A stretch of DNA of 64,000 bases from an uncultured delta proteobacterium (GTDB lineage: Bacteria > Desulfobacterota > Binatia > UBA9968). Both the position numbers and the translations under genes were made by a program. Below are positions 9,323 to 25,586 of this stretch, in pieces (position 1 is the first letter of the stretch; every line of letters begins with the position of its first letter). Under the pieces are notes generated by a model. It had not been told where the DNA came from, searched no databases, and saw only the letters and a list, made by a program, of their open reading frames with translations. The stretch spans positions 64,001 through 128,000 of the forward strand of contig CAWFJP010000004.1 in assembly GCA_963816145.1 (NCBI GenBank), written 5' to 3'.

Positions 9323-9335
9323 GTCGGCTCCCGTT

Positions 9336-10048: not shown

Positions 10049-10077
10049 TTGACAAGCCATCCGGCTTCGACTAGCTT
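10049..10077 (+). promoter_or_regulatory. Sigma70-type promoter TTGACA-N17-TAGCTT (leaderless start at 10084)
   Basis: Perfect -35, 17-nt spacer, 6 nt between -10 and ATG, no SD. Confidence 0.75.
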
Positions 10078-10083
10078 CAAACC

Positions 10084-10380
10084 ATGTCAGTTTTTGGAGC
10101 TCGAACGGCAAACGCTTTCGGCCGCGCCGCTTGCGCCGTCACTTTGCTGTTCTTGTTCTTCCTGCCGCTGCATGTTCATTTTTCGCTGTCGCCGCAGTTG
10201 AGCAACCAATGCAGTTGCTTGCAGGGCGCGCGCGCGCAGTTCGTCGTCGCCGACAAAGCTCCGACGGTTGTGCCGGTCCCGCAATTTGCGGTTCTGCTCG
10301 AACCGCAGGTTTGCGCTTGGAGTTCTACCGCATCGCATTGCCAGTATGTCCGTGGCCCGCCTCTCTCAGTAGCCGTTTAG
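10084..10380 (+). CDS. RGPP leader/arrest peptide uORF 1 (DUF2946-like, HxH/CxC type)
   Basis: 98 aa; hydrophobic segment, HVH, CSCLQG, 44 aa, RGPP; paralogous to 10918 and 19382. Confidence 0.8.
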   Translation: MSVFGARTANAFGRAACAVTLLFLFFLPLHVHFSLSPQLSNQCSCLQGARAQFVVADKAPTVVPVPQFAVLLEPQVCAWSSTASHCQYVRGPPLSVAV

Positions 10381-10467
10381 TTCGACAATTTCAGCGATAC
10401 TAGTGTGTTCTCGGTGGCGTGTGCGCAAGCCGAGGCGAGTTGTTATCTATCGAGGGAGGGGCTTGTC

Positions 10468-10902
10468 ATGAACTTTTCTGTTGTTCGGACACCGCTTGTC
10501 GTGGTGTCTGCGGCTTTTACGTTTCTGTTGTTTCTATCGGAGCGAGGTTGGGGGCAAAGTACCGAGCTTGAATCGCTGCGCGCGCTCGTCAAGGGCATGG
10601 AACAGCAGCTGCAACAGGCTTTGCAGCGCATCGATCAGCTGGAAAAAGAAAAAGGGTCGACGTCAGTAAGGGTCGAGCAAGTCGAAAAATCAATTCAGGC
10701 GGTGCAAAGCGCGCCGACGGCGCTCAATCCAGCAATCACACCGATCCAACCGCTTGTCCCGGAGCTATGTCAACGAAACTCTTCTTATTTTACCGCATTA
10801 ACAAGTATTCACCGATGGAGGCCTGAGACAAAAAGCACTCCGGTCGAGGCATCCTCTCAGCTACGCGCGGACTCGTTGAATTTGACAAGTCTTAATTCCT
10901 AG
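10468..10902 (+). pseudogene. Truncated paralog of the outer-membrane porin gene at 19787 (signal peptide plus coiled coil only)
   Basis: QSTELESLRA...SAPTALNP matches the 19787 protein; homology stops at ~10731; strong SD GAGGGAGGGG at 10452-10461. Confidence 0.75.
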
Positions 10903-10910
10903 GCTAACAA
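10882..10910 (+). promoter_or_regulatory. Sigma70-type promoter TTGACA-N17-TAACAA (leaderless start at 10918)
   Basis: Perfect -35, 17-nt spacer, weaker -10, 7 nt to ATG, no SD. Confidence 0.6.
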
Positions 10911-10917
10911 GTCGGCT

Positions 10918-11214
10918 ATGGATCTCGCGCAGCTCTCGTTTCAAATAAAGCATAGACAGCGCTGCGTCGGCGTCTTATTGCTGCTAACCGTCTTTTTCCT
11001 GCTGTTTCATTTTCACCCCGCCACAGCGTCAACCGCACAGATTAATGGCGAATGTACCTGCCTGCATGGTACCCGGACCCAAATCGGAATTGCCCCGGTC
11101 ATGGTCCAGTTACCACTGCCCGTGCTGTTAGTTAGGTATTATTCATTCGAACCTCGGTTTGTGTCATTAAATACTGTTCGTTTCCGATCCATTCGCGGTC
11201 CGCCGGTTTTTTAG
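10918..11214 (+). CDS. RGPP leader/arrest peptide uORF 2
   Basis: 98 aa; hydrophobic segment, HFH, CTCLHG, 44 aa, RGPP. Confidence 0.8.
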   Translation: MDLAQLSFQIKHRQRCVGVLLLLTVFFLLFHFHPATASTAQINGECTCLHGTRTQIGIAPVMVQLPLPVLLVRYYSFEPRFVSLNTVRFRSIRGPPVF

Positions 11215-11293
11215 TCTCTCCGTCACCGTTTATTTTTCAGCTGTTTCTTGAAGATAGGAGCCACCTCGACCGTCCTCGGTCGCCCGCGGCCCG

Positions 11294-11328
11294 TTCTCCA
11301 TCCATTGGCCCTTAGCCGATTGGAGGAA
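11294..11328 (+). promoter_or_regulatory. Hairpin predicted to occlude SD GGAGGA of the MerC-domain gene
   Basis: TTCTCCATCCATTGGC-CCTTA-GCCGATTGGAGGAA pairs by eye with two single-base bulges. Confidence 0.55.
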
Positions 11329-11333
11329 TATTC

Positions 11334-11819
11334 ATGAATCAAAATGTCTCTGCCGTGGCGCCCCGCTCGTGGATCGATGCCCTCGGCAGCACGTTTTCAA
11401 TTGCCTGCGCCATGCAGTGTTCGGTTTTTCCGCTGCTCATCGGCGTGTTGCCGCTGTTAGGTTTGGGTTTTCTCTTAGGCGACGGCGTCGAGAAAGTCTT
11501 TCTGGGAACCTCAGTCGTGCTCGGCGTCAGCAGCTTCACTTGGGGATTTCGCTACCACCAACGTTTTTACGTCTTTGTTTTTTTGGTTTCGGCGTTAGCC
11601 TTGATCGGCGTCGGACGCTTTTGGGTTGACGACCGATACGAGACTCCAATCGTCGTCGCCGGAACGCTGGTTTTGGCCGCAGGCCATTTCCTCAATCGGC
11701 GACTATGCCGTCTTTGCGCCGAGTGCGACCGCCATGGAAGCGCGTCCGGCTCCCATGTCGCAAGCCATATGAGCACTGTCTCCGTTGCCAACGAAAGGAA
11801 CAACGATCATGAAGTCTAA
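11334..11819 (+). CDS. MerC-domain membrane protein
   Basis: WIDALGSTFSIACAMQC (MerC-like CxxxC), four TMs, GHFLN, C-terminal CRLCAEC and His residues. Confidence 0.8.
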   Translation: MNQNVSAVAPRSWIDALGSTFSIACAMQCSVFPLLIGVLPLLGLGFLLGDGVEKVFLGTSVVLGVSSFTWGFRYHQRFYVFVFLVSALALIGVGRFWVDDRYETPIVVAGTLVLAAGHFLNRRLCRLCAECDRHGSASGSHVASHMSTVSVANERNNDHEV

Positions 11820-12312
11820 GTTGATATTAGCTTTACTTTGTATCGGCCTGATCTCCCTGGGTTCACCCGCGGTGCATGTCTGCCGGATTATTCCCGGCTG
11901 GAGTGCGATTACCGTTGCTGGCGCTGCCAATGCTGCGGAAAAGATTCCGTCGCTTACCTGGGATAATCTCCGCAGGCTCAACCCGCAGTCGGGCAAAATG
12001 CCGGCGGACTTGAAGAAGCACGATGGTAACGTTGTGCGAGTTCCAGGTTTTATCATCCCGCTCGAAGACAATGACCAGGAAGTTTCAGAGTTTCTCCTCG
12101 TGCCCTACCCGTTGGCGTGCATTCATGTGCCGGCTCCGCCGCCCAATCAAATTGTCCATGTGAAAATGGAGAAGGGGAAGAAGGTTCCTTTCGATTTTTA
12201 CGCGCCGGTTTGGGCGCAAGGACGGCTCAAGATTCAACACGAGCAAAACATGTACACCGACACGTCGTACTTCATGAGCGGTCTCTCGATAGAACCGTAC
12301 CGAGAACGATAG
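11809..12312 (+). CDS. DUF3299 protein (ZrgD/PA4066-like)
   Basis: VRVPGFIIPLE...EFLLVPYPLACIHVPAPPPNQIVHV; AAGGA RBS. Confidence 0.88.
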   Translation: MKSKLILALLCIGLISLGSPAVHVCRIIPGWSAITVAGAANAAEKIPSLTWDNLRRLNPQSGKMPADLKKHDGNVVRVPGFIIPLEDNDQEVSEFLLVPYPLACIHVPAPPPNQIVHVKMEKGKKVPFDFYAPVWAQGRLKIQHEQNMYTDTSYFMSGLSIEPYRER

Positions 12313-12321
12313 GAGTGAGCC

Positions 12322-12891
12322 ATGTTCTATAAGACATTGTTAATTTCGGCACTCGGCATCTTTGCGCTGGGCGTTAATAAAGGAACCGCAGCTGAACAGC
12401 GCCATGCCGAAGCTCATGTGCACGGCATGGCGGAAATCAACATCGTAGTCGAAGGCAAGAGAGTTGTTGTGGAATTCCACACGCCCTCGGAAGGTCTAAT
12501 GGGTTTTGAGCATGAAGCCAAGACTGACGCAGAAAAGAAAAAACGTGACGCGGCAATGAAAATCGTCAACCAGCGGTCTAACGAACTGATCGTTTTCGAC
12601 AAACGAAGCGCTTGCAAATCGCGTAGTGCTACAGCTCGGATCGCGCGCGGTGAGGACCACGATACTAAAGACAAAACGCACGCGGCGGAAAATCAAAAGA
12701 TCAGCGGCGAGCACAGCGAACTCCAAGCCGTGTACCAATTTGAGTGTGATCGGTCGCCGCTAGGGACCAAAGTGAGTTTTGGCGTCTCGAAGCTGTTTCC
12801 TGACATTCACGAGATCAAAGTACAGATCTTGACCGACACCAAGCAAACCGGAGTAACGATCAAGAACGACAAAGGGAACGTCGAGCTTTAA
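12322..12891 (+). CDS. zrgA: DUF2796 periplasmic zinc-binding protein (ZrgA/PA4063-like)
   Basis: Signal peptide, HAEAHVHG, GFEH, HSEL...YQFEC motifs. Confidence 0.85.
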   Translation: MFYKTLLISALGIFALGVNKGTAAEQRHAEAHVHGMAEINIVVEGKRVVVEFHTPSEGLMGFEHEAKTDAEKKKRDAAMKIVNQRSNELIVFDKRSACKSRSATARIARGEDHDTKDKTHAAENQKISGEHSELQAVYQFECDRSPLGTKVSFGVSKLFPDIHEIKVQILTDTKQTGVTIKNDKGNVEL

Positions 12892-12897
12892 CCGGCT

Positions 12898-13575
12898 ATG
12901 GATTACGCCGTTGACATCGAGCAATTGATTTTTTCCTACCGTGGATCGAAGGCCGTGCTGCGTATTCCCGCTCTTACGATCGCCAAGGGTGAAAAAATTT
13001 TCCTCCATGGACCGAGCGGCAGCGGCAAAACCACGCTGCTCGGAATTCTCGCCGGTGTTCTCAGGGCGACCGAAGGACAGGTGACTATCTTGGGGCAAGA
13101 TCTCGCTCGAATGTCGGGACCCCGCCGCGATGCCCTTCGCGGTTCGCACATCGGTTACATCTTTCAGATGTTCAATCTAATTCCTTATCTCAATGTGCTG
13201 GAAAACATCATCCTGCCCTGCCGCATCAGCCCGGAACGCCAACGACGCTTGAACGGCCGATCGCAACACGATGAAGCCAAGAAATTAGCGGACCGATTGG
13301 GGATCGGGCCGATTGTAAGCGACAACGTCATCGATCTGAGCGTCGGCCAGCAGCAACGGGTGGCGGCGGCGCGCGCCTTGATGGGCGCTCCTGAGCTGAT
13401 CATCGCCGATGAACCGACATCGTCGTTGGACGAAGATCATCGCGAGGGATTTCTTCAACTGTTGTTCGATCAGTGCCGCGAGATCGGCTCGACGTTGATT
13501 TTTGTCAGCCACGATAGACGGATGATGCCGCTCTTCGATCGCGCCGTGTCGTTAGCAGAGATCAATAAGGTTTAA
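12898..13575 (+). CDS. ABC ATP-binding protein (ZrgB/PA4064-like, LolD-type)
   Basis: GPSGSGKTT, FQMFNLIPYL, LSVGQQQRVAAARAL, IADEPTS. Confidence 0.92.
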   Translation: MDYAVDIEQLIFSYRGSKAVLRIPALTIAKGEKIFLHGPSGSGKTTLLGILAGVLRATEGQVTILGQDLARMSGPRRDALRGSHIGYIFQMFNLIPYLNVLENIILPCRISPERQRRLNGRSQHDEAKKLADRLGIGPIVSDNVIDLSVGQQQRVAAARALMGAPELIIADEPTSSLDEDHREGFLQLLFDQCREIGSTLIFVSHDRRMMPLFDRAVSLAEINKV

Positions 13576-13576
13576 C

Positions 13577-14842
13577 ATGTTTCTGCTCTCGCTCGCATAC
13601 CGCTCATTGGCCAATCGCAAACTGACGACGATCGTTACATTGTTGTCGCTTGGACTGAGCGTCAGCCTTTGGATTGGGATCGAACAGATTCGTAGCGGCG
13701 CGCGCGAAAGTTTTTCCAACACTATCAGCCAAACCGATCTGATCGTCGGCGCGCGCGGCAGTCCGATCCAGTTGCTGCTCTACACGGTATTTCACATCGG
13801 TACGCCGACGGCGAACGTCACTTACAAGTCATACAAGGAAATCAAAGATCACAAAGCGGTGCTGTGGACGATTCCCATCTCTCTGGGCGACAGCCACCGC
13901 GGATACCGCGTAGTTGGCACAAACGAAGATTTTTACCAGCATTACCGTTACCGGCAAGACCAGCAATTGGAGTTTGGCCAAGGGCGCGCGCCGGCTGGGA
14001 TCTTTGATGTGGCGCTCGGCAGCGATGTGGCGCAGGCGTTGCGCTACGGTCTGGGAGCAAAGATCGTTGTCACTCACGGCATCACCAACAGCCGCGGCAT
14101 CATGGATCACGACGATAAGCCGTTTACAGTTGTCGGTGTCTTGCGGCCCACGCGCACCCCGATCGACCGTTCTCTTTATGTGACACTCGAAGGTATCGAA
14201 GCGATGCACATCGACTGGAAACAGGGCGCGCCGCCGATCAAAGGACAAGAAACCCCGGCGGAGAAAATCAAAAAGGAAGACATTAAAATTGACCAGATCA
14301 CGGCGTTTTTTCTGCGCACGAAGTCACGGGTGCAAACCCTCGCGCTGCAACGGGAGATCACCAATTTCCCTGACGAGCCGCTGACGGCGGTGGTTCCCGG
14401 TGTCGCTCTGAGCGAGCTTTGGACCGGTATCAGTTACGGCGAGCAAGTGCTCCAAGTGGTGGCGATCTTTGTCGTGATCGTCGGACTCCTCGGCATGTTG
14501 ATGTCGCTCTACACATCTTTGAACGAGCGGCGGCGGGAAATTGCCATTCTCAGGGCCTTGGGAGTTGGGCCGGTGAAAGTAATTTCCCTCTTGATATTCG
14601 AGTCGGGGCTGCTGACCTTAATCGGTACGGTTTTGGGGGTGGCTATAGTTTATGGTTCTGTTGCATTGTTGCAGCCGACGATTGAGCAGCAATTCGGCCT
14701 GCACATCCCGCTTAGGCCGCTCACGGGCACGCAGTATAGTTACCTGGTTTATGTAGTCTTTGGCGGAATTGCCGTCGGTCTCATTCCAGCCTGGAAAGCT
14801 TACCGAAATGCCCTCTCAGATGGCTTAAGCGTGCGAATTTAG
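13577..14842 (+). CDS. ABC permease, MacB/FtsX type (ZrgC/PA4065-like)
   Basis: DLIVGARGS, PISLGDSHRGYRVVGT, ERRREIAILRALG. Confidence 0.92.
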   Translation: MFLLSLAYRSLANRKLTTIVTLLSLGLSVSLWIGIEQIRSGARESFSNTISQTDLIVGARGSPIQLLLYTVFHIGTPTANVTYKSYKEIKDHKAVLWTIPISLGDSHRGYRVVGTNEDFYQHYRYRQDQQLEFGQGRAPAGIFDVALGSDVAQALRYGLGAKIVVTHGITNSRGIMDHDDKPFTVVGVLRPTRTPIDRSLYVTLEGIEAMHIDWKQGAPPIKGQETPAEKIKKEDIKIDQITAFFLRTKSRVQTLALQREITNFPDEPLTAVVPGVALSELWTGISYGEQVLQVVAIFVVIVGLLGMLMSLYTSLNERRREIAILRALGVGPVKVISLLIFESGLLTLIGTVLGVAIVYGSVALLQPTIEQQFGLHIPLRPLTGTQYSYLVYVVFGGIAVGLIPAWKAYRNALSDGLSVRI

Positions 14843-14945
14843 ATTTGCAGCGATGGGGATAGTGAAAAAAACTTCCTTGATGACGCTGCCGGTGCGGTAT
14901 CGTCGGAGGGTATACGAGTCTTGCTTATGATTTTGGAGATTTGAA

Positions 14946-15437
14946 ATGGAAAAACAAGCCGTCATTTTATTTCTGCTGTTAAGTTTGTTGCTCATCTCGA
15001 AAGGAATGAATTTTGCCGACGAATCCATTCCTGTTCGGCAACCGATTCGCGATAAGTTGGCGAACGCAGCGCGCCATTTTCTCGGGATGCCATATCGCTG
15101 GGGAGGGATGTCGGAGCGTCGCGGCATGGATTGCTCGGGGTTGGTCAAAGCGCTATTTGCCACATTACACATTGATTTGCCCAGGACTTCCCGCGAACAA
15201 TATCACGCCGGGGAAAATGTTGCTGTCGAAAACCTGCAAGCCGGCGACCTGCTCTTCTTTTCATCTGACGGCGTGACGCCGAATCACGTCGGTCTTTATA
15301 TCGGCGACAATCGTTTTGTTCACGCCGAGAAAAAAGCCGGACACGTCATCATCACGGAACTGAATCAGCCTTGGTACGTTAAGCATTTCCTGGGAGCACG
15401 CCGTATTGTGGAATCGGAAGAAGGGCGACGCACATGA
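14946..15437 (+). CDS. NlpC/P60 (C40) peptidoglycan endopeptidase
   Basis: GMPYRWGG, MDCSG, LPRTS, GDLLFF, HVGLYIG, HA. Confidence 0.93.
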   Translation: MEKQAVILFLLLSLLLISKGMNFADESIPVRQPIRDKLANAARHFLGMPYRWGGMSERRGMDCSGLVKALFATLHIDLPRTSREQYHAGENVAVENLQAGDLLFFSSDGVTPNHVGLYIGDNRFVHAEKKAGHVIITELNQPWYVKHFLGARRIVESEEGRRT

Positions 15438-15570
15438 AACAAATGGATCGGTTTTAGTGTTACGTGATCTATGTTTCAAGCCTGACGATAATACAGCATA
15501 GACAGGAATCGCGGCCTGGGAGAAGTTTAGGGAAAGTCAAAAAAGTAAACCCTCTGGAGACGCGCTGCGA

Positions 15571-15870
15571 GTGGCATTCGGATTTAGATTAATTACTTTC
15601 GCTGGGCTTTGCTTAATTTGGTCGGTGCACATCGCTTGGGCGGCCGGCTCTTGTCATATCCACCCGCTGGGAGTCGATATCAAGGAAGCCGAATCGAGCG
15701 CATTCGAGTGGTACAGCTCTCTTGAGCAGTGCGAGGTGGCGAATAAAAAGTTTTTCGGCGGAAGAGGAATGTGTCATTGTTTTCCTGACGGATTTATCAA
15801 CGGAGAAGGCGATGACTGGCGGTCTCGGCTGAGAGATCACGGCACGCTGCAAGAGCCGCCGTCGGAATGA
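15571..15870 (+). CDS. Small secreted Cys/His-rich hypothetical protein
   Basis: Signal peptide (AWA), CHIH...C...CHC; GGAG upstream of GTG. Confidence 0.6.
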   Translation: MAFGFRLITFAGLCLIWSVHIAWAAGSCHIHPLGVDIKEAESSAFEWYSSLEQCEVANKKFFGGRGMCHCFPDGFINGEGDDWRSRLRDHGTLQEPPSE

Positions 15871-15938
15871 TCATTGATGTCACAAACGCACGGTCGTCTA
15901 CCCTGGGACCGGATGCTGACGGAACGCCTCGATGGAAA

Positions 15939-16556
15939 ATGAAGCACCCATCTAGCATGACCTTCATGCTTGGAATCGGATTGATCGCTGCATTATTCGG
16001 TGCGGTCGCTTGCACGCCAGCAATTGTCACTTCTCTACCGCAGACCGTTCGTCGAATCGCCGTTCTTCCACCCTTCCAACGTGGCGCCGTCAATGCGCGC
16101 ACTGACGCAGACAACGGTCTACCTGTTTTACAAAACATGACTGTGGGAGATGTTCTCGCCCATCAAGCACGCATCAGACTTGCGGAAAAAGGATTCGAGG
16201 TTCTCAGTCCTGGTGCAGTGAAAGTGGCAACCAAGGATCGTGTGCCCACTAGCCCAGAGATGGCGGCGCAGATTCTGCGCGAGGCCAACCTTGACGCGGT
16301 GGCGCTGTACATCGAAATACGGCGTTGGGACCCAACGCCAAGCGAGAGGGGAATGAAAGCCGACGGTGTAATCGTCGCGTTAGACGTGACGATGGTCGAT
16401 CCGAGGACAGGCGCGATATTGTGGCAGCTACACCGTCCATCCCGGCCGGTTCCGCTTTACGGAGTCGTATTGACCGGGCAAGCTAATGTCTTCGTGGCCG
16501 AGACGATCATGCGGGAGGCGCTTGCATTGGTTAAGTTGTCGCAGCCGAATGGTTGA
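15939..16556 (+). CDS. Lipoprotein, DUF799/LpoB-like fold (start 15939 or 15867)
   Basis: Lipobox AVAC, RRIAVLPPF, VALDVTMVDPRTGAILW. Confidence 0.7.
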   Translation: MKHPSSMTFMLGIGLIAALFGAVACTPAIVTSLPQTVRRIAVLPPFQRGAVNARTDADNGLPVLQNMTVGDVLAHQARIRLAEKGFEVLSPGAVKVATKDRVPTSPEMAAQILREANLDAVALYIEIRRWDPTPSERGMKADGVIVALDVTMVDPRTGAILWQLHRPSRPVPLYGVVLTGQANVFVAETIMREALALVKLSQPNG

Positions 16557-16620
16557 ACATACGTCCATTAGCCGCTAATGGACCATGCTTTATGAACTCA
16601 ACACAGGTTATCCATGGGAC

Positions 16621-19186
16621 TCAATGGCCGGTGTTTTCTTCGGAGCCTGAAAGTTTATTAAGGCGCCGCTGGATCTCGTCGAATTGCTGGCGCAGCGCTT
16701 CGTACTGCTGGCGGAGCATTGCCAAATCCCGTTGATCCTGGGATTTCTCCTTCGTCTTGGAATCGCTATCTCCAGCCAATACAACTTCAGGCACCAACTC
16801 ACGCACGACAGTTTCGTAGCGACGAGCAGCGCCATCATCGCGCCCAGCGGCTGCGACGGCATAGTGATAGAGCGCTGTCCCGGCCCGACGAGCAGCGGTA
16901 ATTTCCGGCGCTGTCGGCCAAAGCGGATCGGCAGCGCCTGCCAAGCGCGTTTCAAGAATATCATAAAACGAAGCTAGACTTTCTCCGGTGAACCAATCCG
17001 CGTTGCCAAATGTGGCGGCGACACGGGTCAAGCGCGGAGCCAGGAATTCAATCAGCGGGCGATCGTCGGTATTAAGCGGAGCGCTGCCGAACAAATCAGC
17101 TACAGCTCTGAGATTTCCGGCGTAGAGCATCGACAGACCTCGCGGAGTCGAAAGAACCGGATCCTTGCTCCATTCGGGCAGTCGCAACGCGCGCTCACGG
17201 ATGCGCGCGAGGTCAAGCCGTCGCGATGTTAGCTGGCCGACCAAACCAACCACTGGAAGCTCCGCATAAAAATCATCGCGCCAGAGACTCACTTGCGGAA
17301 ATACAGCAAGAAACGTTCGCGCGATAATATCAAATTCCCCGCGGGTAAGTTGATAGAGCGGCAGCCACTGACAAAAGATTCCGTCCGGCGCGAGACGACG
17401 GGCCGCGGTTTCATACATCTCTCGCGCGTAAAGGTTTCCAGTCCCCGGATTCCAGGGTACGAACAGGTCGGAGACAATCACGTCGAAACTGTCTCGGCTG
17501 GTCGCGAGATAGCGGCGACCGTCGTCGAGCACGAGGCGTACATCGGAGCGCTCCAATAATTTTGCGTTCCAAGACGAGAAGTGCGCGCGCGCCGCGTTCG
17601 CGACTTCCGGCACGAGTTCAACAACCGTTGTATCTTCTACGCCAAGGGCAGGTGCTGCGCTTGCGCTGATGCCGGTGGCAAGGCCGATGAAGGCAACACG
17701 GCGCGGATTGGGATGGAGCAGCAACGGGAGCAGCCCCTGGCGCCGCTCGCCAACCGCTGCCGCGCTGCGCCCCAGTACGTAGTAGTTATCGAGCCGGAGT
17801 TGAAGATCTCCGCCCGCCTCCGTCACAGCGACAACGCCGCTCGCTCCCTCGATCATCTCGCGTAACGTTTCGCCTTTCGAACCGAGATGTACGAGCGGCG
17901 CTCGCAGTGGATTGGCAATCAACATGGCGAGGAGAACAACGTAAGCGAGCGGTCTAAACCGGCTTTGCGACGGCGCAAGTAGATCAGCGAGCAGAACATA
18001 CACCACCGCCGCGACGAGCAAGCTCCCGCGAACGCCGAGCGCCGGGATTATTAAGAAGCCCATGGCAACCGCGCCGAGGACTCCACCGAAAAGGTTTGCC
18101 GCCGAAAGATCTCCCAGCGGACGAGCTACACTTATCCGCTCGCCCCAGGCGGCCCAGAGGGCGGGCAAAACCATTCCGGACGCAATCGCCGCGGGGCCAA
18201 CTGTTATTGCGGTAAGTGCTATGATCCGTAAAACATATTCCAGCAACCCAGCGCGCATGCCCAAATAGGTGAGCCCATCCGTCCAGTACACGAAGAGCCA
18301 CAGCCCGCCGATGGTTGCACCCGCTGCAACCACCAACCCCATCGCTGCGACGGTATTCGGTGCAGCGCGACGCAGTAGAAACGCCGCCAGTGCCGCGCCC
18401 GCCGCGATCGCTAAAAGAAAAACAAGGATCACCGTCGTGAAGGAATAGACTGAGTTATGTAAAACTTGGGCAAAGAGATGTGTCCAAAGCACTTCGAGCC
18501 CGAGGCCCAAGGCGCCCGTACCGGCGGCGACGAGCCGCAAACGCGCGCGTTGCGGCGGCGGAAACATGGCTTTCCTTGACCGATTCGGTTATGGATGCTT
18601 TCTCACGGCGATCGCCGATCGCGATTGCCAGGAGTCCGGCCAGCAAACTGGCGCCGGCGGCGATGACGTAGCTCGCCCGCACACCGACGAAGATGGGAAG
18701 GCCAAAGCCCGCGGCTGCCGCGCCGAGCACAGCGCCTGCGGTGTTGATGGCGTAAAGGAGACCGCCGCGTTGTCCCACAGTCTCGACGCTGGCAAGAGCT
18801 TGGGCAAGAGTCGGAAGCGTTGCACCTAGACAGAATGTTGTCGGTAGAATCGCCAACGCGACGGCAGCAACGCGTCCCGCGAGTCCAATGTTGGAAAGCC
18901 AAACCTGAGCATTATCGAGGGCCAGTACCCGGAAAATAGTGAGCGACCACAGTGCGCCTCCTGCGGCGCCAAATTCGAGATATCCGTACAATCGCACTGG
19001 TCGTGACGAAGCCCGTCGCGCATAGACTGAGCCAAGGCCCAAGCCGGCAAAATAGCAGGCGAGGACGGTCGCGGCGGTGAAAGCGGTTGTGCCAAGGACG
19101 AGCCCGGCCGAGCGCATCCATAGCATTTCCAAGGCCAGAGCGGCTGCGCCTGAAAGAGCGAAACAGAGCCAAAGCATAAACCGCAT
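16621..19186 (-). pseudogene. Fused membrane/spermidine-synthase-like protein, split by a frameshift near 18567 (frames 19186-18455 and 18567-16621)
   Basis: SGAAALALEMLWMR and LYAINTAG membrane repeats; IGLATG, VELVPEV, DDGRRYL, DVIVSD, TDDRP SAM-fold motifs. Confidence 0.75.
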
Positions 19187-19194
19187 GCTACGTT

Positions 19195-19223
19195 GATTTA
19201 TGTTGTACCACAGCAAATGTAAA
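19195..19223 (-). promoter_or_regulatory. Promoter TTTACA-N17-TAAATC with a palindromic, Zur-box-like spacer
   Basis: 8 nt from -10 to ATG 19186; TGTTGT-ACC-ACAGCA at 19201-19215. Confidence 0.45.
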
Positions 19224-19345
19224 CTAGATGACTCATCAACGGCCAAAAAATATGTTTCTGTTCGACTCCTCGCTGCCTGTTGTGTCATCTTTCGGAAAGA
19301 TTGATCTCAATAGCAAGTCGGTTACGGCTGCAGCGCAATATTCTG

Positions 19346-19374
19346 TTGACTTCGCGAAGCACATTCGTTAGGTT
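19346..19374 (+). promoter_or_regulatory. Sigma70-type promoter TTGACT-N17-TAGGTT (leaderless start at GTG 19382)
   Basis: 17-nt spacer, 7 nt to GTG. Confidence 0.7.
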
Positions 19375-19381
19375 AAACGGC

Positions 19382-19678
19382 GTGGTTCTTTCAGGAATGA
19401 GAAGAGGATTTTCTATTCGCCGTCTCGTTACTGCGACGACTTTAGTATTTGTTTTCTTTCTACCATTTCATTTTCATCTTTCCGTTTCCGCGCAAATCAG
19501 TAAAGAGTGCACTTGCCTCCAAGGTGTTCGAACTCAGCTGGGTGCGATCGCGAATGTTACGGCGGTCGTCCAGCAGCTTTGGATTGCACGCGTTGCCAAT
19601 CAAGCGGTTTCTATTTGGGCCGAAGACAGATTGGAACAGCAGCATGTCCGAGGGCCACCCTTCCGAGCCTCCCTGTAG
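19382..19678 (+). CDS. RGPP leader/arrest peptide uORF 3
   Basis: 98 aa from GTG 19382 (ATG 19397 is an alternative); HFH, CTCLQG, 44 aa, RGPP. Confidence 0.8.
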   Translation: MVLSGMRRGFSIRRLVTATTLVFVFFLPFHFHLSVSAQISKECTCLQGVRTQLGAIANVTAVVQQLWIARVANQAVSIWAEDRLEQQHVRGPPFRASL

Positions 19679-19786
19679 TTCTTTGTTCGAAATCCGAATC
19701 GTAAAATAACTACGTCCGTTTCCCTTCTATTCTCACCTCTGAATCATAGGAGGGTGACGGAATGGTATTGGAGGGGGGGTAGCAAA

Positions 19787-21052
19787 ATGTTTCTATTATC
19801 AGCGAGGCTGCAACGGGTCGCGGCATTCGTTCTGGTGAGTCTATTGATTGGGTTTCCATCGGCTGCCCTGGCGCAAAGTTCGGAGTTGGAAGCGCTGCGC
19901 GCCACGGTCAAAAACATGGAGCAGCAAATGCAAAAGGCGTTGCAGCGTATCGATCAATTGGAAAAGGAAAAAACTTCGACAACCGTGCGCGTCGAGCAAG
20001 TCGAAAAATCAGTTCAGGCGGTGCAGAGCGCGCCCACAGCGCTAAACCCCTCGATGGGGCTGGTGCTTGATGCGAATGTCCAAAATCTTGGCAAAGCGGG
20101 CGGCAATTTTGATTTCCGCAGCGCCGAGCTGGGAATCGCGGCTTCGGTGGACCCATTCGCCAGAATGTACAGTTTCTTCAACGGCTCAAAGGATGGTGTG
20201 GAGGTCGATGAAGCGGCAGCGATCACTTCTTCGCTGCCATGGAACTTGACGGCCAAGGGCGGCCGATTCCTCGCCGACTTCGGGCGCTTGCCTAAAGTTC
20301 ACGAGCATGAGCTGCCGTTTGTGACTCAGCCGCTATCGATACAACGAATGGTCGGCGGTGAAACCCAGGCGGACGGCGTAGAAATGAATTATCTGTTCCC
20401 GACGCCGTTTTATCTGCGGGCCACGTTGGGAGGAATGAACAAGATCGGCGAGGATAACGATCAGGTAAGCAATTCCAAGCCGCGCTCGTGGAGCCGATTC
20501 ACCTATCTCGGCAGGCTCAACACCTATTTTGATCTAACTGATAATCAAAGCGTTGAAGTTGGCACGAGCATGGCCTATACGCCAGACCTGCGTCTGGCAG
20601 GTGATCCCAGCGGCGGCTATCGCGCGCTTAACGGCATCGATGTGACTTATCGCTACCAGCCCCTCAACAGCGCCGTTTACCAGGGTGTGACTTGGGGTAG
20701 TGAATGGTATACCAACAGCGAGCGGATACCATTTGATACCGACGCGAGTAGTTCTGCCAAACGACAACGGTCATACGGCGGCTATAGTTACGTTGAGGCG
20801 AAGCTGAACAAGAACTGGTCGACCGGATTCCAAGTCGACTACGCTCCCATGGTCGAGACCCCGGCACAGCGGACCATGAGTTACACACCTTTCGTGACCT
20901 GGAATCTCAGCGAATTTAATCGGCTGCGCTTTCAGTACAGTTACTTGAACAACAATTTTCGCGGGGCGGACAAAGCTGAAAACGGCAATCAATTTTTCCT
21001 CCAATGGACGACGGTCATCGGTGCTCATACCCATGGTTTTCTCGGTCGCTAA
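19787..21052 (+). CDS. Outer-membrane beta-barrel of the 'zinc-regulated TonB-dependent receptor/porin'-like family
   Basis: Signal peptide, N-terminal coiled coil, FNRLRFQY, C-terminal IGAHTHGF; precedes a metal ABC transporter. Confidence 0.8.
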   Translation: MFLLSARLQRVAAFVLVSLLIGFPSAALAQSSELEALRATVKNMEQQMQKALQRIDQLEKEKTSTTVRVEQVEKSVQAVQSAPTALNPSMGLVLDANVQNLGKAGGNFDFRSAELGIAASVDPFARMYSFFNGSKDGVEVDEAAAITSSLPWNLTAKGGRFLADFGRLPKVHEHELPFVTQPLSIQRMVGGETQADGVEMNYLFPTPFYLRATLGGMNKIGEDNDQVSNSKPRSWSRFTYLGRLNTYFDLTDNQSVEVGTSMAYTPDLRLAGDPSGGYRALNGIDVTYRYQPLNSAVYQGVTWGSEWYTNSERIPFDTDASSSAKRQRSYGGYSYVEAKLNKNWSTGFQVDYAPMVETPAQRTMSYTPFVTWNLSEFNRLRFQYSYLNNNFRGADKAENGNQFFLQWTTVIGAHTHGFLGR

Positions 21053-21079
21053 GGATTTTCCCAAGGGAGTCTACTTATT

Positions 21080-22009
21080 ATGATTAAAAAATTAACGCGA
21101 GGAATAAACTGGAAAACATTTCTCTTCGCTTTTACATTTCTTTCCTTACAAACGGGTTTGGTATTCGCACAGCAGATTCGTGTAGTGGCGACCTTTCCTG
21201 ATCTCGCCGACATAACCCGGCAGATCGGCAAAGAGCTGGTCACTGTGGATAGTCTGGCCACGGGAATCGAAGACCCTCACGGGGTTCCCATGAAACCGAG
21301 CTTTGTGCCTCGATTAAACAGAGCTGACGTAATAGTCCTCACGGGTTTGGATGACGAGCATTCATGGCTTCCCGCGTTACTGGAAGTGGCAGCCAATTCA
21401 AAAATTCTTCTCGGCCGTCCGGGCTACATAGATTGTTCTGTTGGAGTACCGGTGCTTGAAGCGCCGACTCTCGTGGACCGCTCGGAGGGAGATATGCACC
21501 CGAAGGGGAATCCGCACTTCATGTTAGATCCTGTCAAAGCGAAAATCGCAGCGCGGAACATCGCTTCTGGCCTTTCCCGGAATTTTCCTCAACATCAGCA
21601 GGTTTTTGACAAAAATCTCAAAGCCTATGTTGCGGAACTGGATAGTTGGATTGCACGCTGGGAAAAGCTGGCGATGCCTCTCCGGGGTATCAAATATGTA
21701 GAATATCATCCCCAATGGATATATTTCGCCGATCGATTCGGTATGAAACGGATTGGGAGTGTTGAACTGAAGCCAGGGATAGAACCAACGCCTAATCATA
21801 TCGTGGAATTGGTGCAGACAATCAAACAAGAGAAACCTCAGTTACTCCTTTACGGTGCTCAGAACCCGCGACTTCCGCAACAAATCTCAGCTGAGACAGG
21901 TATCAAGGTTCTTCGTCTTTACAGTAACGCGGGAGCGCAACCTGAGACGGATAGCTATATAAAATGGATCGATTATACTGTGCGTACTCTAGTTCAGGCG
22001 GTTAGTTAG
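21080..22009 (+). CDS. znuA: Metal ABC transporter substrate-binding protein (ZnuA/TroA family)
   Basis: EDPH, GDMHPKGNPHFMLDP, YH, ELKPGIEPT. Confidence 0.88.
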   Translation: MIKKLTRGINWKTFLFAFTFLSLQTGLVFAQQIRVVATFPDLADITRQIGKELVTVDSLATGIEDPHGVPMKPSFVPRLNRADVIVLTGLDDEHSWLPALLEVAANSKILLGRPGYIDCSVGVPVLEAPTLVDRSEGDMHPKGNPHFMLDPVKAKIAARNIASGLSRNFPQHQQVFDKNLKAYVAELDSWIARWEKLAMPLRGIKYVEYHPQWIYFADRFGMKRIGSVELKPGIEPTPNHIVELVQTIKQEKPQLLLYGAQNPRLPQQISAETGIKVLRLYSNAGAQPETDSYIKWIDYTVRTLVQAVS

Positions 22010-22011
22010 AC

Positions 22012-22746
22012 TTGATAAAACAGGATCGAGATGTCGACGCAATCGCAGGCGCCAGAGGTGAAGAGTCGGAAAAAAGCTCTTCGCCTCTGGTTTCTCTTGA
22101 AAATGTAAACCTGGGCTATGATTCCACCCCGGTGGTTCGAGACGTCAATCTCGCTATCTTTCCGGGGAGCCTCATCGGTCTGGCCGGGCCCAACGGTTCA
22201 GGCAAGACCACGCTGTTCAGAACAATTCTAGGGTTACTGCCGCCTGTTAGCGGAACTCTTTCCCGCAGTTGTCCCTTGTCAAACTTTGGCTACGTGCCGC
22301 AAAGCGCAGCGCTCGATCCGCAATTTCCGCTGAGCGCGTCAGAGGTCGTGGAGATGGGCGCCTACGGCCGTGTCCGCCCATATCAGTTTTTACCGGCGAG
22401 TGAAAAGGCGCGAGTCAAAGAAGTTTTGCAACAAATTGGCTTGCCGCAGCTCGCGGCGAGATCGTTTTTTTCTTTGTCCGGTGGCCAAAAACAACGGATG
22501 CTGATTGCGCGCGCGTTGATGGTAAATCCAAAGATCATGATTTTAGACGAGCCGCTTTCTGGAGTGGACGAAGAGTCCCGGCGCAGCATCGCCGATCTAT
22601 TAACAAAACTCACCCGCGAAAAGGGATTGGCGGTGTTTTTTTCCAGCCACGACCTTGAGATGGTGCAACGCGTGGCCGATGGTATCGTGCGCATCGATAA
22701 AGGACAGATTTGGTTGGACGAAAGAAAGGCACGACTTCATCCATGA
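22012..22746 (+). CDS. znuC: Metal ABC transporter ATP-binding protein
   Basis: GPNGSGKTT, GYVPQ, LSGGQKQR, ILDEPLSGVD, SHD. Confidence 0.88.
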   Translation: MIKQDRDVDAIAGARGEESEKSSSPLVSLENVNLGYDSTPVVRDVNLAIFPGSLIGLAGPNGSGKTTLFRTILGLLPPVSGTLSRSCPLSNFGYVPQSAALDPQFPLSASEVVEMGAYGRVRPYQFLPASEKARVKEVLQQIGLPQLAARSFFSLSGGQKQRMLIARALMVNPKIMILDEPLSGVDEESRRSIADLLTKLTREKGLAVFFSSHDLEMVQRVADGIVRIDKGQIWLDERKARLHP

Positions 22747-24188
22747 GCGCTCTATTTGAAATCATAAGCCCCTCATATTTGCTCTTTCCAGCACTCGTGG
22801 GCACGATGATCATGGGCTTGGTTTGTCCACTGGTGGGATCGTTCCTGGTTCTTAGACGCACGGTGTTTCTTGGATTAACCCTTCCGGAAATTGCTGCCGC
22901 TGGAGTCGCTTTTACGTTCTGGATGCAGCAGGCGGGCCTCTTGCCACAGATGGGACAAAGCGAAAGAGGTGTTGCGATGGTGGGGTCGCTCGTCTTTACG
23001 TTCCTCGGCATGGGGCTGCTCGGTTATCTGGAGCAGCGCGGCAAAGGCCCAGCGGAAGGCCGCCTCGCCGCGGCATACGCATTTGCCGGCGCTCTAACGA
23101 TCTTGTTCATGGTTTTTAATCCCGCGGGTCAGATAGAAGTTCTCAATCTACTGAAGGGTGAAGTGATCGCACTATCCAAAGGAGAACTGCGACTTGTAGT
23201 TGCAGTGTTTGGCTTAGTTTTATTGGCGATGGTTTTCTTCCGCCGTGAGTTTCTTCTGACTTCTTTCGATCGGGACTTAGCATTCTTGCTCAAAGGCCGC
23301 CAAGTGATTTGGGACATATTGCTTTATCTTCTTGCCGGCTTAATCATCGCCGTCGGGGTGATCATCGCGGGACCGCTGCTGATTTTCGGATTCCTGGTCT
23401 TGCCGGCGCTGGCAGCTAAACCTTTGGTCCACCGGATGAGTTCTTTCCTTATGCTTTCTTCAGCGTTGGGTATGATGATGGCATTTTTCGGTTTTTACAG
23501 CTCCGTCAGGTTGGATCTTCCTTTAGGACCAACAGACGTGGCTCTGGGATGCTGCCTGATCTTTCTGGCGTACGGAATCCGGCGGATTTCAACCAGAGGT
23601 TTTGCGGCAACGATCCTGACATGCGTTGCTATTTCCGTTTCCGCTTGCAGCACGCCAGTCCCTCCACCACCCATTCCTGAGGCTAAAGCGATTCATGCAG
23701 ATCTAGTCTGGTTGGCCAAGGTCAAAAATAGCACTGCGTTGCCGCTGATATTGCCGGAGTCCAATCCGCTGCGATCGTTGGCCGAAATGGCCGGCAAGCT
23801 TGCCCCCGAGACACGCGCCAACGTGATGGATTTGCTGCGTCAAAATCTCCAAACTGAACTCGCGCAACAAGGCTTCCAGATTTTTCTACCTGAGGCCAAG
23901 GATGTGCGCTTTCCGCCGTTTGCCGCCGACGCCGTTAGCGCCGCCCGGGTGGCGCGCGAGGGGAATCTTTCGGGGTTGATTTTCGTCTGTGAGATTTGGC
24001 GCTGGGAAGGCGAAACGCAAAAGTTCGTGCGCGCTCTGGTCGATTTCAAACTCGTCCGCATCGATGACGGCACCGTCGTCTGGGAGCGCCGCGTGCAACG
24101 CGCGGTTCCCACCCCGAGCGCGACCAATCTCGGTCAGGCATCGACCGATGCCGTAAAGGCAATTATCCACGACTTATTCGCGGGATGA
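22743..24188 (+). CDS. znuB: Metal ABC permease (ABC-3) fused to a C-terminal lipoprotein-like domain
   Basis: ~280-aa ABC-3 permease (LVGSFLVLRR, SFDRDLA, FLVLPALAA), then RR..R-hydrophobic-VSAC and a ~180-aa soluble domain. Confidence 0.85.
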   Translation: MSALFEIISPSYLLFPALVGTMIMGLVCPLVGSFLVLRRTVFLGLTLPEIAAAGVAFTFWMQQAGLLPQMGQSERGVAMVGSLVFTFLGMGLLGYLEQRGKGPAEGRLAAAYAFAGALTILFMVFNPAGQIEVLNLLKGEVIALSKGELRLVVAVFGLVLLAMVFFRREFLLTSFDRDLAFLLKGRQVIWDILLYLLAGLIIAVGVIIAGPLLIFGFLVLPALAAKPLVHRMSSFLMLSSALGMMMAFFGFYSSVRLDLPLGPTDVALGCCLIFLAYGIRRISTRGFAATILTCVAISVSACSTPVPPPPIPEAKAIHADLVWLAKVKNSTALPLILPESNPLRSLAEMAGKLAPETRANVMDLLRQNLQTELAQQGFQIFLPEAKDVRFPPFAADAVSAARVAREGNLSGLIFVCEIWRWEGETQKFVRALVDFKLVRIDDGTVVWERRVQRAVPTPSATNLGQASTDAVKAIIHDLFAG

Positions 24189-24200
24189 AAAGAGGATGTC

Positions 24201-24950
24201 ACGTCTGCTACATGGATTTATAGCCTCGCCAGCGTTGTTTTGGTGAGTCTGCTGTCGCTTGTCGGTATCGCTTTTATCTCACTGAGCGAATTGCGTTTGA
24301 AGCAGCTGATATTCGCCATGGTTAGCCTCGCTGTCGGCAGTTTGTTCGGCGACGCATTCATCCATCTGTTGCCCAAGTCATTTGAGCAGAGGCCGGAGAA
24401 GATGCAAGTGTCGCTCTCAATTCTTGCCGGAATCTTTACATTTTTTATTTTGGAAAAATTTCTTCTTTGGCGTCACAAGCACGTGCTGGAATCCGAGCAT
24501 GCGATCCACCCCGTCGGGTACATGAATCTACTGGCAGACGGCGTGCACAACTTTATTGACGGCGCGATTATCGGAGCGTCTTATCTGGTCAGCTATCAGA
24601 TTGGCGTGGCGACTACCCTGGCGGTGATTTTTCACGAGATCCCGCATGAGCTCGGAAACTTCTTCGTTTTGCTCTATGCCGGATTCACCAAGACGAAAGC
24701 GCTCTTGTTCAACTTTATATCGGCATTGTTCGCGATTTTGGGAACTGTAATTTCGTTGTCCGTCGGTTCTCGGGTGCAACAATTTGCTTCGCTGATGCTG
24801 CCGATCGCCGCCGGCGGTTTTATTTACATCGCCGGTTCCGATCTAGTTCCCGAGCTGAATAAAGAGGTGCAACTATCCAAATCGATCATGCAGATGATCG
24901 CTATAGGAACCGGCGTTGGATTAATGCTGTTATTGACGCTGCTGGAATGA
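24201..24950 (+). CDS. ZIP family metal transporter (no canonical start before TTG 24240; ACG 24201 suspected)
   Basis: GDAFIHLLP, DGVHNFIDG, HEIPHELG, AGGFIYIAGSDLVPEL. Confidence 0.88.
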   Translation, partial: TSATWIYSLASVVLVSLLSLVGIAFISLSELRLKQLIFAMVSLAVGSLFGDAFIHLLPKSFEQRPEKMQVSLSILAGIFTFFILEKFLLWRHKHVLESEHAIHPVGYMNLLADGVHNFIDGAIIGASYLVSYQIGVATTLAVIFHEIPHELGNFFVLLYAGFTKTKALLFNFISALFAILGTVISLSVGSRVQQFASLMLPIAAGGFIYIAGSDLVPELNKEVQLSKSIMQMIAIGTGVGLMLLLTLLE

Positions 24951-24962
24951 GGTTATCGCACT

Positions 24963-25586
24963 ATGGCTCACCGTCGTCCTCCGCTTATGCGCGCATTGCA
25001 GCTCAATACCGCGGTTCTGGTCGTAGAGATCGCCGCCGGAATTGGCTCTAACAGTTTTAGCCTCATCATGGATGGCATCCATAATCTTTCCGACGAAGTC
25101 GCGCTTGTGCTGCTGGTGCTAGCCTATAGTCTTAGAGCGGGTCTTTCAGGCAAGCTGTTGCGCTACGCAAACCTGTTCAACTCAGTCGGACTTTTAGCGA
25201 TCTCGGTCTTCCTGACCTTGCGTGTTGTTGAGCGCCTGTCTTACCCCGTCGAAGTGGTCGGCGTTGTCCCGATCATAGCCGGTTTGATCGGAGCAGCAGC
25301 CAACTGGGGCGTCGCTCGCGTGTTGCGCGAAGCCGCCAAAGAGGACGTGGCCATTCGTCTAGCTTACGTCCACAATCTCGGCGACACTTTGGTTTCGCTC
25401 ATTCCGGTAGCAGCTGGCATTTTCATTTTTGCCTCGGGAAATTTTCTATTTGACTCGTTGTTCGCCTTGCTGATTGCCGCCGTTGTGGTGGTTACGACGC
25501 TGCAAGCCGTCGTGGGGTCCCACCAAGAGCTGCTGTGGCCGGAGAATGTTTCGTGCGGGCATGCGGAAGTTGATCTAAAGATTTGA
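24963..25586 (+). CDS. Cation diffusion facilitator, membrane domain only
   Basis: DGIHNLSD (TM2) and AYVHNLGD (TM5) HxxxD motifs; no C-terminal domain. Confidence 0.85.
   Translation: MAHRRPPLMRALQLNTAVLVVEIAAGIGSNSFSLIMDGIHNLSDEVALVLLVLAYSLRAGLSGKLLRYANLFNSVGLLAISVFLTLRVVERLSYPVEVVGVVPIIAGLIGAAANWGVARVLREAAKEDVAIRLAYVHNLGDTLVSLIPVAAGIFIFASGNFLFDSLFALLIAAVVVVTTLQAVVGSHQELLWPENVSCGHAEVDLKI

Follow-up and report, generated by a model that had tools for sequence, protein, structure and literature searches.

The 64,000-nt stretch of DNA analyzed here (the window; positions 64,001 to 128,000 of contig CAWFJP010000004.1 from an uncultured delta proteobacterium) encodes three 98-residue leader peptides that head gene clusters for metal transport and share HxH, CxC, and RGPP motifs. 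We consider it likely that these leaders are arrest peptides of the RAPP/RGPP type, similar to CruR and CutF, that sense a metal, probably zinc, and that a ribosome stalled on them exposes the ribosome-binding site of the downstream gene. Thus, zinc uptake is probably also subject to arrest-peptide control of the CruR kind. For copper, the general class was published in 2022 to 2025, and the zinc-operon family is a variant of it and not a new category. If the proposal is correct, the association of RAPP/RGPP arrest with znuACB, zrg, and ZIP genes would add a second metal to those sensed by nascent chains, provide a compact test system of 98 codons in which the ruler is strict, the ligand set clear, and the RNA switch readable, and give an indication of how uncultured soil and wetland lineages may regulate their zinc economy. 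The layout had been noticed in a first-pass annotation made from the DNA letters alone, which read it as a candidate metal-sensing ribosome-arrest system; the analysis presented here confirms the observation and, as far as computation reaches, supports the interpretation.

A leader family with invariant motifs and a fixed-length linker

Translation of the window and alignment of the products reproduced the three open reading frames (ORFs) of equal length and their common layout (Table 1). Pairwise identity among the leaders is 33 to 36%, and 19 columns of the three-sequence alignment are invariant. Each leader has a basic N-terminus and a hydrophobic run that ends in FFLPLHVH, FFLLFHFH, or FFLPFHFH (leaders 1, 2, and 3, respectively), followed after 10, 12, and 10 residues by C(S/T)CL(Q/H)GxRxQ, a divergent linker, and (V/I)RGPP located 5, 2, and 5 residues before the stop codon. 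A profile built from these three sequences matches exactly the same three places in the 7.8-Mb genome, plus one weak match (E = 0.56), and comparison of the leaders with Pfam and NCBIfam gives chance-level matches only.

A word-indexed search found 86 clusters of similar proteins, mostly of exactly 98 amino acids (aa) and all unnamed, and an exhaustive search of 1.84 billion representative proteins retrieved 135 sequences at E ≤ 1e-3 and 71 at E ≤ 1e-10; the family as a whole has no match in the Pfam/NCBIfam annotation. An alignment of 63 of 88 proteins (the other 25, mostly near-identical, were left out) shows nine invariant residues, L27, H30, H32, C43, C45, R50, R90, P92, and P93, so that both HxH and CxC, proposed as family traits on the strength of three sequences, are invariant. 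HxH, CxC, and a C-terminal RxPP occur together in 206 of 219 fetched proteins; the 13 excluded entries comprise one protein of 3571 aa, fragments, and five apparent members with a mutated or lost motif. Among the 206, the putative arrest motif is RAPP in 121, RGPP in 81, RSPP in 3, and RDPP in 1, so that the RGPP of the window leaders broadens to R(A/G)PP, present in 202. It lies 5 residues from the C-terminus in 138 proteins, 2 in 30, 3 in 21, and 4 in 11 (2 to 5 residues in 200 of 206). The first Cys and the Arg are 47 positions apart in 200 proteins (44 intervening residues), 48 in 5, and 45 in 1, and over the same set the CxC block has a mean pairwise identity of 0.58 and the linker one of 0.16. 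Two unusual relatives were also noticed. The 3571-aa protein (P0161), excluded from all counts, contains 40 stretches that match the leader profile, and P0203 (189 aa) joins the N-terminal leader motifs to the coiled-coil start of the porin-like protein described below, without RxPP; a frameshift or a fusion made in assembly may account for the latter.

A scan of one genome per species identified 30 loci in other genomes, with 33 leaders. By record title, 10 of these loci come from Candidatus Binatia, 15 from metagenome-assembled genomes (MAGs) labeled “delta proteobacterium” or Deltaproteobacteria, 2 from Syntrophobacter(aceae), and one each from Acidiferrales, Eisenbacteria, and Chloroflexota. 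Within the class to which the window belongs, the family is found in 10 of 201 sampled genomes, in one to three copies per genome, and in 8 of the 13 genomes of its own family-level group. Judging from the record labels, its carriers are limited to uncultured lineages of soil and wetland, including Binatia and “delta proteobacterium” MAGs. No leader homologue was detected in a plasmid collection at E ≤ 1. Two zrgA-bearing plasmids were inspected, and a DUF6525 gene upstream of zrgA on a Pseudooceanicola plasmid was considered as a leader and dropped, as its product has no transmembrane (TM) segment, HxH, CxC, or RxPP.

The first gene downstream of the 33 leaders from other genomes codes for a porin-like protein in 28 cases, MerC in 2, and an NlpC/P60 endopeptidase in 2; the remaining leader is 21 nt away from a contig end. 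The porin-like gene is mostly followed by those for ZnuA, ZnuC, and ZnuB, in this order, and in six cases by a ZIP gene as well, while the leader-MerC-NlpC order of the second window unit recurs in loci L018 and L026. A recognized gene on the same strand thus follows all 32 leaders that have downstream DNA, and all 32 are linked to zinc-type uptake genes, in agreement with the linkage to metal transport originally proposed from the window. The distance from the leader stop to the inferred next start is 73 to 122 nt in 31 of the 32 units that were folded (see below), which include the three in the window, and 251 nt in one. A sec or yidC gene follows none of the 33 leaders.

At the codon level, the HxH, CxC, and RxPP blocks appear to be under protein-level selection, since the third codon position varies far more than the first two: entropies at positions 1, 2, and 3 in the 33 leader genes are 0.73, 0.30, and 1.34 for the HxH block and 0.22, 0.39, and 1.56 for RxPP. 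The linker has a flat profile (1.62, 1.54, and 1.80) and is under almost no protein-level selection, and the tail (1.57, 0.99, and 1.41; n = 24) shows a pattern that is not protein-like. An AlphaFold2 (AF2) model built with the alignment contains only a helix at residues 11 to 31, corresponding to the hydrophobic run behind the basic N-terminus, with the remainder unstructured (pLDDT, 59); matches of the leader profile to the PDB are TM-helix noise only. The fixed length and free sequence of the linker, the entropy pattern, and the helix-only model all point to a regulatory nascent peptide with a length ruler rather than a folded protein. By these comparative measures, the leader family is conserved and translated.

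The first-pass annotation had also read a TTGAC(A/T)-N17-TA promoter before each leader. These promoters are present in the window (Table 1), and an equivalent arrangement, TTGAC[AT]-N17/18-TAnnnn-N5-8-(A/G)TG, in frame and 28 to 30 codons before HxH, is found at 31 of the 33 leaders from other genomes, with 17 ATG and 14 GTG as inferred starts. This conservation of geometry across loci supports the three promoters in the window, and because the promoter abuts the start codon, the leader mRNA is probably leaderless. An alignment-level check of 15 upstream regions showed no conserved operator beyond the −35 element, part of the −10 element, and the start. The genome encodes two Fur-family proteins, both outside the window. 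Their genes (C4:172988-173332 and C25:17897-18241) have identical scores, and the two contigs may be duplicates, consistent with the contamination figure of 6.7% for this assembly.

Parts of the window are found in 20 public sequencing runs, in which the word shares are all small (at most 0.27). The single RNA-library (metatranscriptome) run contains one 188-nt contig identical to positions 19526 to 19713, a weak indication of expression, with DNA carry-over possible. This contig spans the 3′ half of leader 3 and 35 nt of the spacer, which is too little for calling a short transcript; contigs give neither strand nor transcript ends, and the missing coverage of the porin-like gene there is uninformative.

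Predicted pairing of the putative arrest region with the next Shine-Dalgarno sequence

The codons for GPP and the C-terminal tail of leader 3 are paired, in the minimum free energy (MFE) fold (z = −2.76), with the Shine-Dalgarno (SD) sequence GGAGGGGGGG ahead of the porin-like gene, and the same codons of leader 1 pair with the SD of the truncated gene copy behind it (Table 1). Such pairing of the SD with the 30 nt starting at the Arg codon is seen in the MFE folds of 25 of 28 porin-type units. The cognate duplexes have a mean energy of −19.7 kcal/mol, compared with −16.5 for swapped partners, −14.4 for shuffled arrest windows, and −12.2 for a control window 60 to 30 nt upstream of the Arg codon. 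In the partner-swap test, the observed cognate mean was reached in none of 10,000 permutations.

The effect of a stall was modeled as a ribosome footprint that covers positions −12 to +15, its P site being placed at the first Pro codon. When this footprint was forced to be single-stranded, the mean probability that the SD is unpaired rose from 0.14 to 0.29 (n = 24 units), and it stayed at 0.14 with a control footprint 10 codons upstream (n = 24). For leader 3, the probability is 0.26 in the free RNA versus 0.51 to 0.70 with the modeled stalled ribosome.

A conserved CCCUCC-loop-GGGAGGG hairpin is located between the anti-SD and the SD and offers a second pair of an anti-SD and an SD-like sequence. 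Examples are found at positions 19714 to 19765 of the window and in loci L014, L015, L017, L022, L028, L032, and L033, with a U-run after the hairpin in L024, L025, and L033. A kinetic trap, a decoy, and an attenuator are candidate roles for this element.

The merC/NlpC-type units are organized differently. In the MFE fold of leader 2, the RGPP codons pair with positions 11283 to 11293 and not with the merC SD. A relay in which the stall frees a decoy SD that captures the local anti-SD was considered for this class and found no support in folding with footprints reaching from +13 to +24. The output of these units may be of the Rho type, by analogy with CruR; a slight excess of C over G in the leader 2 spacer (C, 0.33; G, 0.22) is the one sign of this.

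Proposed mechanism, known systems, and alternatives

In the mechanism that we propose for the porin-type units, the ribosome would stall on R(A/G)PP at the point reported for RAPP peptides, its P site holding the first and its A site the second of the two Pro codons. The stalled footprint would keep the anti-SD single-stranded, so that the SD is free and the porin-znuACB operon is translated, whereas an unstalled ribosome would terminate 2 to 5 codons further on, letting the anti-SD:SD helix re-form and leaving the operon silent. At the stall, Q52 is 40 residues, the first Cys 49 residues, and H30 and H32 60 to 62 residues away from the P-site Pro, which would place the N-terminal module, whose last conserved residue is Q52, immediately beyond the exit tunnel. 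If HxH and CxC then bind a metal, either in the cytoplasm or at the translocon, the nascent chain would be folded or pulled and the arrest released. Uptake genes would be switched on when metal is scarce and off when it is abundant, with the same polarity as CruR has with copper. The metal sensed is most likely Zn(II), because the regulon is of the zinc type.

Several points weigh against this interpretation. A generic sigma-70 scan flags none of the three promoters in the window, because their −10 hexamers match TATAAT at only three of six positions, and GTG, which is a poor leaderless start codon in Escherichia coli, accounts for 14 of the 31 inferred starts. Three of the 28 porin-type units (L013, L019, and L030) have no pairing between the SD and the arrest region in the MFE fold, and the partner-swap test overstates the independence of its data, as the loci are related. 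The opening of the SD in the equilibrium model (0.14 to 0.29) is modest, because the internal CCCUCC...GGGAGGG hairpin can compete. All four merC/NlpC-type units, including that of window leader 2, hold the SD in a separate local hairpin, and the modeled stall opens the SD in none of them, whatever the reach of the footprint. The ZnuA-like protein scores under every NCBIfam cutoff (AztC, 97.8 bits; MntC, 80 bits), and the identity of the metal is judged from neighboring genes only. Furthermore, H30 lies inside the AF2 helix, where the membrane might bury it; cleavage of the N-terminus as a signal peptide, should it occur, would separate HxH from CxC; and the CxC pair could be oxidized in the periplasm.

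To our knowledge, copper is the only metal for which responsive arrest peptides have been demonstrated (CruR and CutF), and zinc uptake is generally regarded as being under transcriptional control by Zur. The leaders share a C-terminal core motif, small size, a putative localization signal, and a location immediately ahead of the regulated gene with ApdA, ApdP, ApcA, and the upstream ORFs of S. lividans, which are reportedly RAPP/RGPP arrest peptides (Fujiwara et al. 2024 and 2025, Morici et al. 2024). A recent study describes RAPP and RGPP as versatile arrest cores refractory to elongation factor P (EF-P), with RGPP the most robust, that are avoided in proteomes and enriched near the C-termini of small secretory or membrane proteins; ORFs of this widespread class, some candidates among them bearing Cys and His, also precede metal-homeostasis genes for TonB receptors, YcnI, PCuAC, and PepSY (Fujiwara et al. 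2025, PMC12992588). Unlike the cases described here, these published metal-associated examples are copper-related, and the terms “Zinc,” “ZnuA,” and “porin” have no occurrences in the main text of that paper. Our literature search joining arrest or leader peptides with zinc uptake gave no paper linking both among the matches listed. Accordingly, the novelty suggested in the first-pass annotation holds for the tie to zinc uptake and does not hold for the metal-linked RAPP/RGPP class, which is already published, with CruR itself ending in RAPP.

CruR (Bp2923; DUF2946/PF11162) of Bordetella pertussis is a close parallel with respect to layout and polarity. Passages of the respective paper describe a CxxC motif, 45 intervening residues, and RAPP, with this spacing conserved, and an arrest that is relieved by copper, permitting Rho termination; these passages make no mention of zinc (Roy et al. 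2022, PMC9426467). In both systems, the upstream ORF is small, its product begins with an export or hydrophobic segment, an invariant Cys motif keeps a conserved distance to the C-terminal arrest motif (45 intervening residues in CruR, 44 in the leader family), and the stop codon comes a few codons past that motif. Both also head metal-uptake operons that begin with an outer-membrane protein, with the stall proposed to mean “on” and the metal to relieve it. In contrast to CruR, the leaders combine CxC with HxH, comprise 98 aa instead of 145 aa, precede a zinc-type rather than a copper regulon, have a leaderless promoter geometry, and show in the porin-type units an output that looks like SD sequestration instead of Rho-dependent termination. 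The claim that the family forms a branch distinct from DUF2946 is borne out by profile searches: none of the 63 aligned members matches the DUF2946 profile at E ≤ 10, the leaders lack the CxxC/CxxxC copper motif of that family, no protein of the window's own genome scores over the cutoff, and none of 151 genomes of the phylum has a match.

CutF of Rhodobacter capsulatus offers a parallel for the RNA switch. In the preprint, the stall is described as melting a stem-loop that shields the ribosome-binding site of the next gene, and as occurring at PPP in an EF-P-dependent, copper-induced manner, which switches on a detoxifying oxidase (bioRxiv 10.1101/2025.02.05.636593). Both CutF and the leaders are nascent, in the case of the leaders putatively exported, peptides with a Cys motif whose stall opens, or is predicted to open, a stem-loop over the next ribosome-binding site, but the leaders carry R(A/G)PP, published as EF-P-refractory, in place of the EF-P-dependent PPP, and the opposite polarity is expected for them because their regulon is one of uptake. 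The type of output known from SecM, MifM, and CutF, in which the SD is paired with ribosome-covered mRNA, is thus found in the great majority of the porin-type units and in none of the four merC/NlpC-type units.

The leaders could instead be stable small membrane or periplasmic metal-handling proteins, such as accessory proteins or chaperones of the porin, Znu, or Zrg components, with RxPP as a structural or targeting feature and the SD pairing as a by-product of the Pro and Ser/Leu codons. The conservation of the leader gene at the head of uptake operons and the invariance of its His and Cys residues would fit such a role, and there is a possible model for it in ZrgD (DUF2607) of Vibrio, which is reported to be a 101-aa protein with one TM helix, of unknown function, whose gene opens the zrg operon in V. 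parahaemolyticus (PMC9817125, PMC9820375). ZrgD resembles the leaders in length (~100 aa), in its single TM helix, and in its location in a Zur-regulated zinc operon that also encodes ZrgA, DUF3299, and an ABC transporter. However, this likeness comes from language-model features only: DUF2607 clusters appear as look-alikes in a protein atlas at 0.93 to 0.94, along with one cluster in which 54% of the members contain DUF2946, and all of these are leads only. The DUF2607 (PF10795) profile matches none of the leaders at E ≤ 10, its six-frame search of the genome at the same threshold hits only an unrelated place on contig C30, and hmmscan of the 63 members detects no DUF2607. What makes a stable protein unlikely is a linker whose length is fixed and whose sequence is free (a 47-residue spacing in 200 of 206 members at an identity of 0.16, with flat codon entropy), together with the lack of an AF2 fold beyond the helix and a cognate anti-SD:SD pairing that is better than in swaps and shuffles; moreover, RAPP and RGPP are, according to the study cited above, strongly avoided in proteomes except in arrest peptides (PMC12992588).

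If the leaders are indeed arrest peptides, their input might be other than zinc, namely, insertion by Sec or YidC, another metal (Cu, Ni, Co, Cd, or Mn), redox state of the CxC pair, or a ligand that strengthens the stall instead of relieving it, which is the polarity of CutF. The N-terminal hydrophobic helix resembles the monitoring substrates of Sec and YidC (SecM and MifM type), and the CutF preprint gives a precedent for ligand-induced stalling with disulfide formation as the releasing force (bioRxiv 10.1101/2025.02.05.636593). In addition, merC-like genes and binding proteins of the A-I type are not zinc-specific, and the best matches of the ZnuA-like protein, AztC and MntC, both fall under their cutoffs. 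On the other hand, the absence of sec and yidC genes behind the 33 leaders, the composition of the regulon (ZnuA/C/B, ZrgA, DUF3299, ZIP, and NlpC/P60), which points to zinc limitation, and the invariant His2 plus Cys2, which fits a metal ligand set better than a pure insertion monitor, render such an input improbable. Plain translational coupling, in which any passing ribosome opens the SD helix without arrest or ligand and control is purely transcriptional (e.g., by Zur), appears very unlikely. It would be served by the position of the anti-SD in the last codons, which a terminating ribosome covers too, and by the two Fur-family genes in the genome, but it leaves the near-universal R(A/G)PP, the 47-residue ruler, and the invariant HxH and CxC unexplained, and the 15 aligned upstream regions show no conserved operator in the alignment-level check.

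Within the preferred arrest-peptide interpretation, a more far-reaching version is possible, although we regard it as rather doubtful: the leaders would be the first nascent-chain zinc sensors, with a His2Cys2 site 40 to 62 residues from the peptidyl transferase center and an EF-P-refractory arrest, that replace or dominate Zur. Zinc bound at this cotranslational site would pull the chain and release the R(A/G)PP arrest, with the 47-residue ruler setting the distance, and in these lineages the post-transcriptional switch on a leaderless mRNA would govern a small zinc-starvation regulon consisting of porin-znuACB-ZIP, merC-zrg, and a zinc-independent NlpC/P60 hydrolase. By analogy, ZrgD/DUF2607 of Vibrio might be the same kind of device.

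Gene neighborhoods of the three leaders

The metal-transport genes that the first-pass annotation had placed behind the three leaders (a truncated porin, a merC-zrg ABC set, and a porin-znuACB-ZIP-CDF set) were verified by Pfam, NCBIfam, and sequence comparison (Table 1). The best NCBIfam names are those of zinc proteins (AztC, AztA, AztB, ZupT, ZitB, and ZrgA), all with scores under the curated cutoffs. No intrinsic terminator was found between any window leader and the gene that follows it.

Table 1. Leaders, predicted regulatory elements, and downstream genes in the window
Feature	Position	Strand	Description
Promoter 1	10049..10083	+	TTGACA (10049-10054), N17, TAGCTT (10072-10077), 6 nt to ATG
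Leader 1	10084..10380	+	98 aa; HVH 30-32, CSC 43-45, RGPP 90-93 (codons 10351-10362), tail LSVAV
Anti-SD in leader 1 (GPP and tail codons)	10354..10373	+	Predicted to pair with SD 10452-10461 in the MFE fold; duplex −21.4 kcal/mol
Truncated porin-like gene copy	10468..10902	+	Behind leader 1; SD GAGGGAGGGG at 10452-10461; no Pfam match
Promoter 2	10882..10917	+	TTGACA (10882-10887), N17, TAACAA (10905-10910), 7 nt to ATG
Leader 2	10918..11214	+	98 aa; HFH 31-33, CTC 46-48, RGPP 93-96 (codons 11194-11205), tail VF
Leader 2-merC spacer	11215..11333	+	merC SD (11322-11326) in predicted local hairpin with 11294-11303
merC-like	11334..11819	+	Unit 2 (11334..15437); Pfam MerC
DUF3299	11785..12312	+	Unit 2; Pfam
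ZrgA	12322..12891	+	Unit 2; Pfam, NCBIfam
ABC ATPase	12898..13575	+	Unit 2; Pfam
FtsX/MacB permease	13577..14842	+	Unit 2; Pfam
NlpC/P60 endopeptidase	14946..15437	+	Unit 2
Promoter 3	19346..19381	+	TTGACT (19346-19351), N17, TAGGTT (19369-19374), 7 nt to GTG
Leader 3	19382..19678	+	98 aa, GTG start; HFH 30-32, CTC 43-45, RGPP 90-93 (codons 19649-19660), tail FRASL
Anti-SD in leader 3 (GPP and tail codons)	19653..19669	+	Predicted to pair with SD 19770-19779; duplex −23.3 kcal/mol
Leader 3-porin-like spacer	19679..19786	+	Internal hairpin (CCCUUC...GGAGGG) and SD GGAGGGGGGG (19770-19779)
Porin-like outer-membrane protein	19787..21052	+	Unit 3 (19787..25586)
ZnuA	21080..22009	+	Unit 3; Pfam
ZnuC	22012..22746	+	Unit 3
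ZnuB (ABC-3)	22710..24188	+	Unit 3; Pfam; C-terminal extension
ZIP	24240..24950	+	Unit 3; Pfam
CDF	24963..25586	+	Unit 3

The porin-like protein has no Pfam match and no sequence match in the PDB. Its AF2 model, built from 21 orthologues and of low confidence (pLDDT, 56), shows a signal helix, a coiled coil at residues 29 to 80, and ~16 strands, and the top Foldseek matches of this model are OprP/OprO, AlgE, and OmpT/OmpU, which makes the label “porin-like” reasonable but coarse. The product of the ORF behind leader 1 is 82% identical to this protein over 61 aa (residues 30 to 90) and unrelated beyond, and since the homology is confined to these residues, we consider the ORF a truncated porin-like copy.

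The ZnuB-like permease carries a C-terminal extension of ~200 aa (residues ~300 to 492). Free-standing ORFs that match it at 25 to 29% identity are found at positions 15867 to 16556 of the window and in two other loci (L018:5161-5829 and L031:3880-4599); the window ORF (229 aa) also has a weak match to GNA1162-like lipoproteins (E = 0.0012). The extension may represent an accessory periplasmic domain of these zinc islands.

A MepS-like NlpC/P60 cysteine endopeptidase belongs to the leader-controlled set in the window and in loci L018, L026, L031, and L034. By analogy with ShyB of Vibrio, this hydrolase, itself independent of zinc, could take over from zinc-dependent cell-wall hydrolases when zinc runs short.

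Further genes near the three units lie on the minus strand. Divergently upstream of leader 1, the region 8657 to 9731 encodes a 221-aa protein similar to extracytoplasmic function (ECF)-type sigma factors and a secreted protein of 131 aa composed of charged R/D/E/K repeats (RQDRKEI-like); no pair of this kind was recognized next to leaders elsewhere. Between units 2 and 3 are ORFs for a 648-aa membrane protein with a spermidine-synthase domain (16621-18567) and a 277-aa MFS-like protein (18455-19288), which overlap by ~110 nt and may be one gene split by a frameshift.

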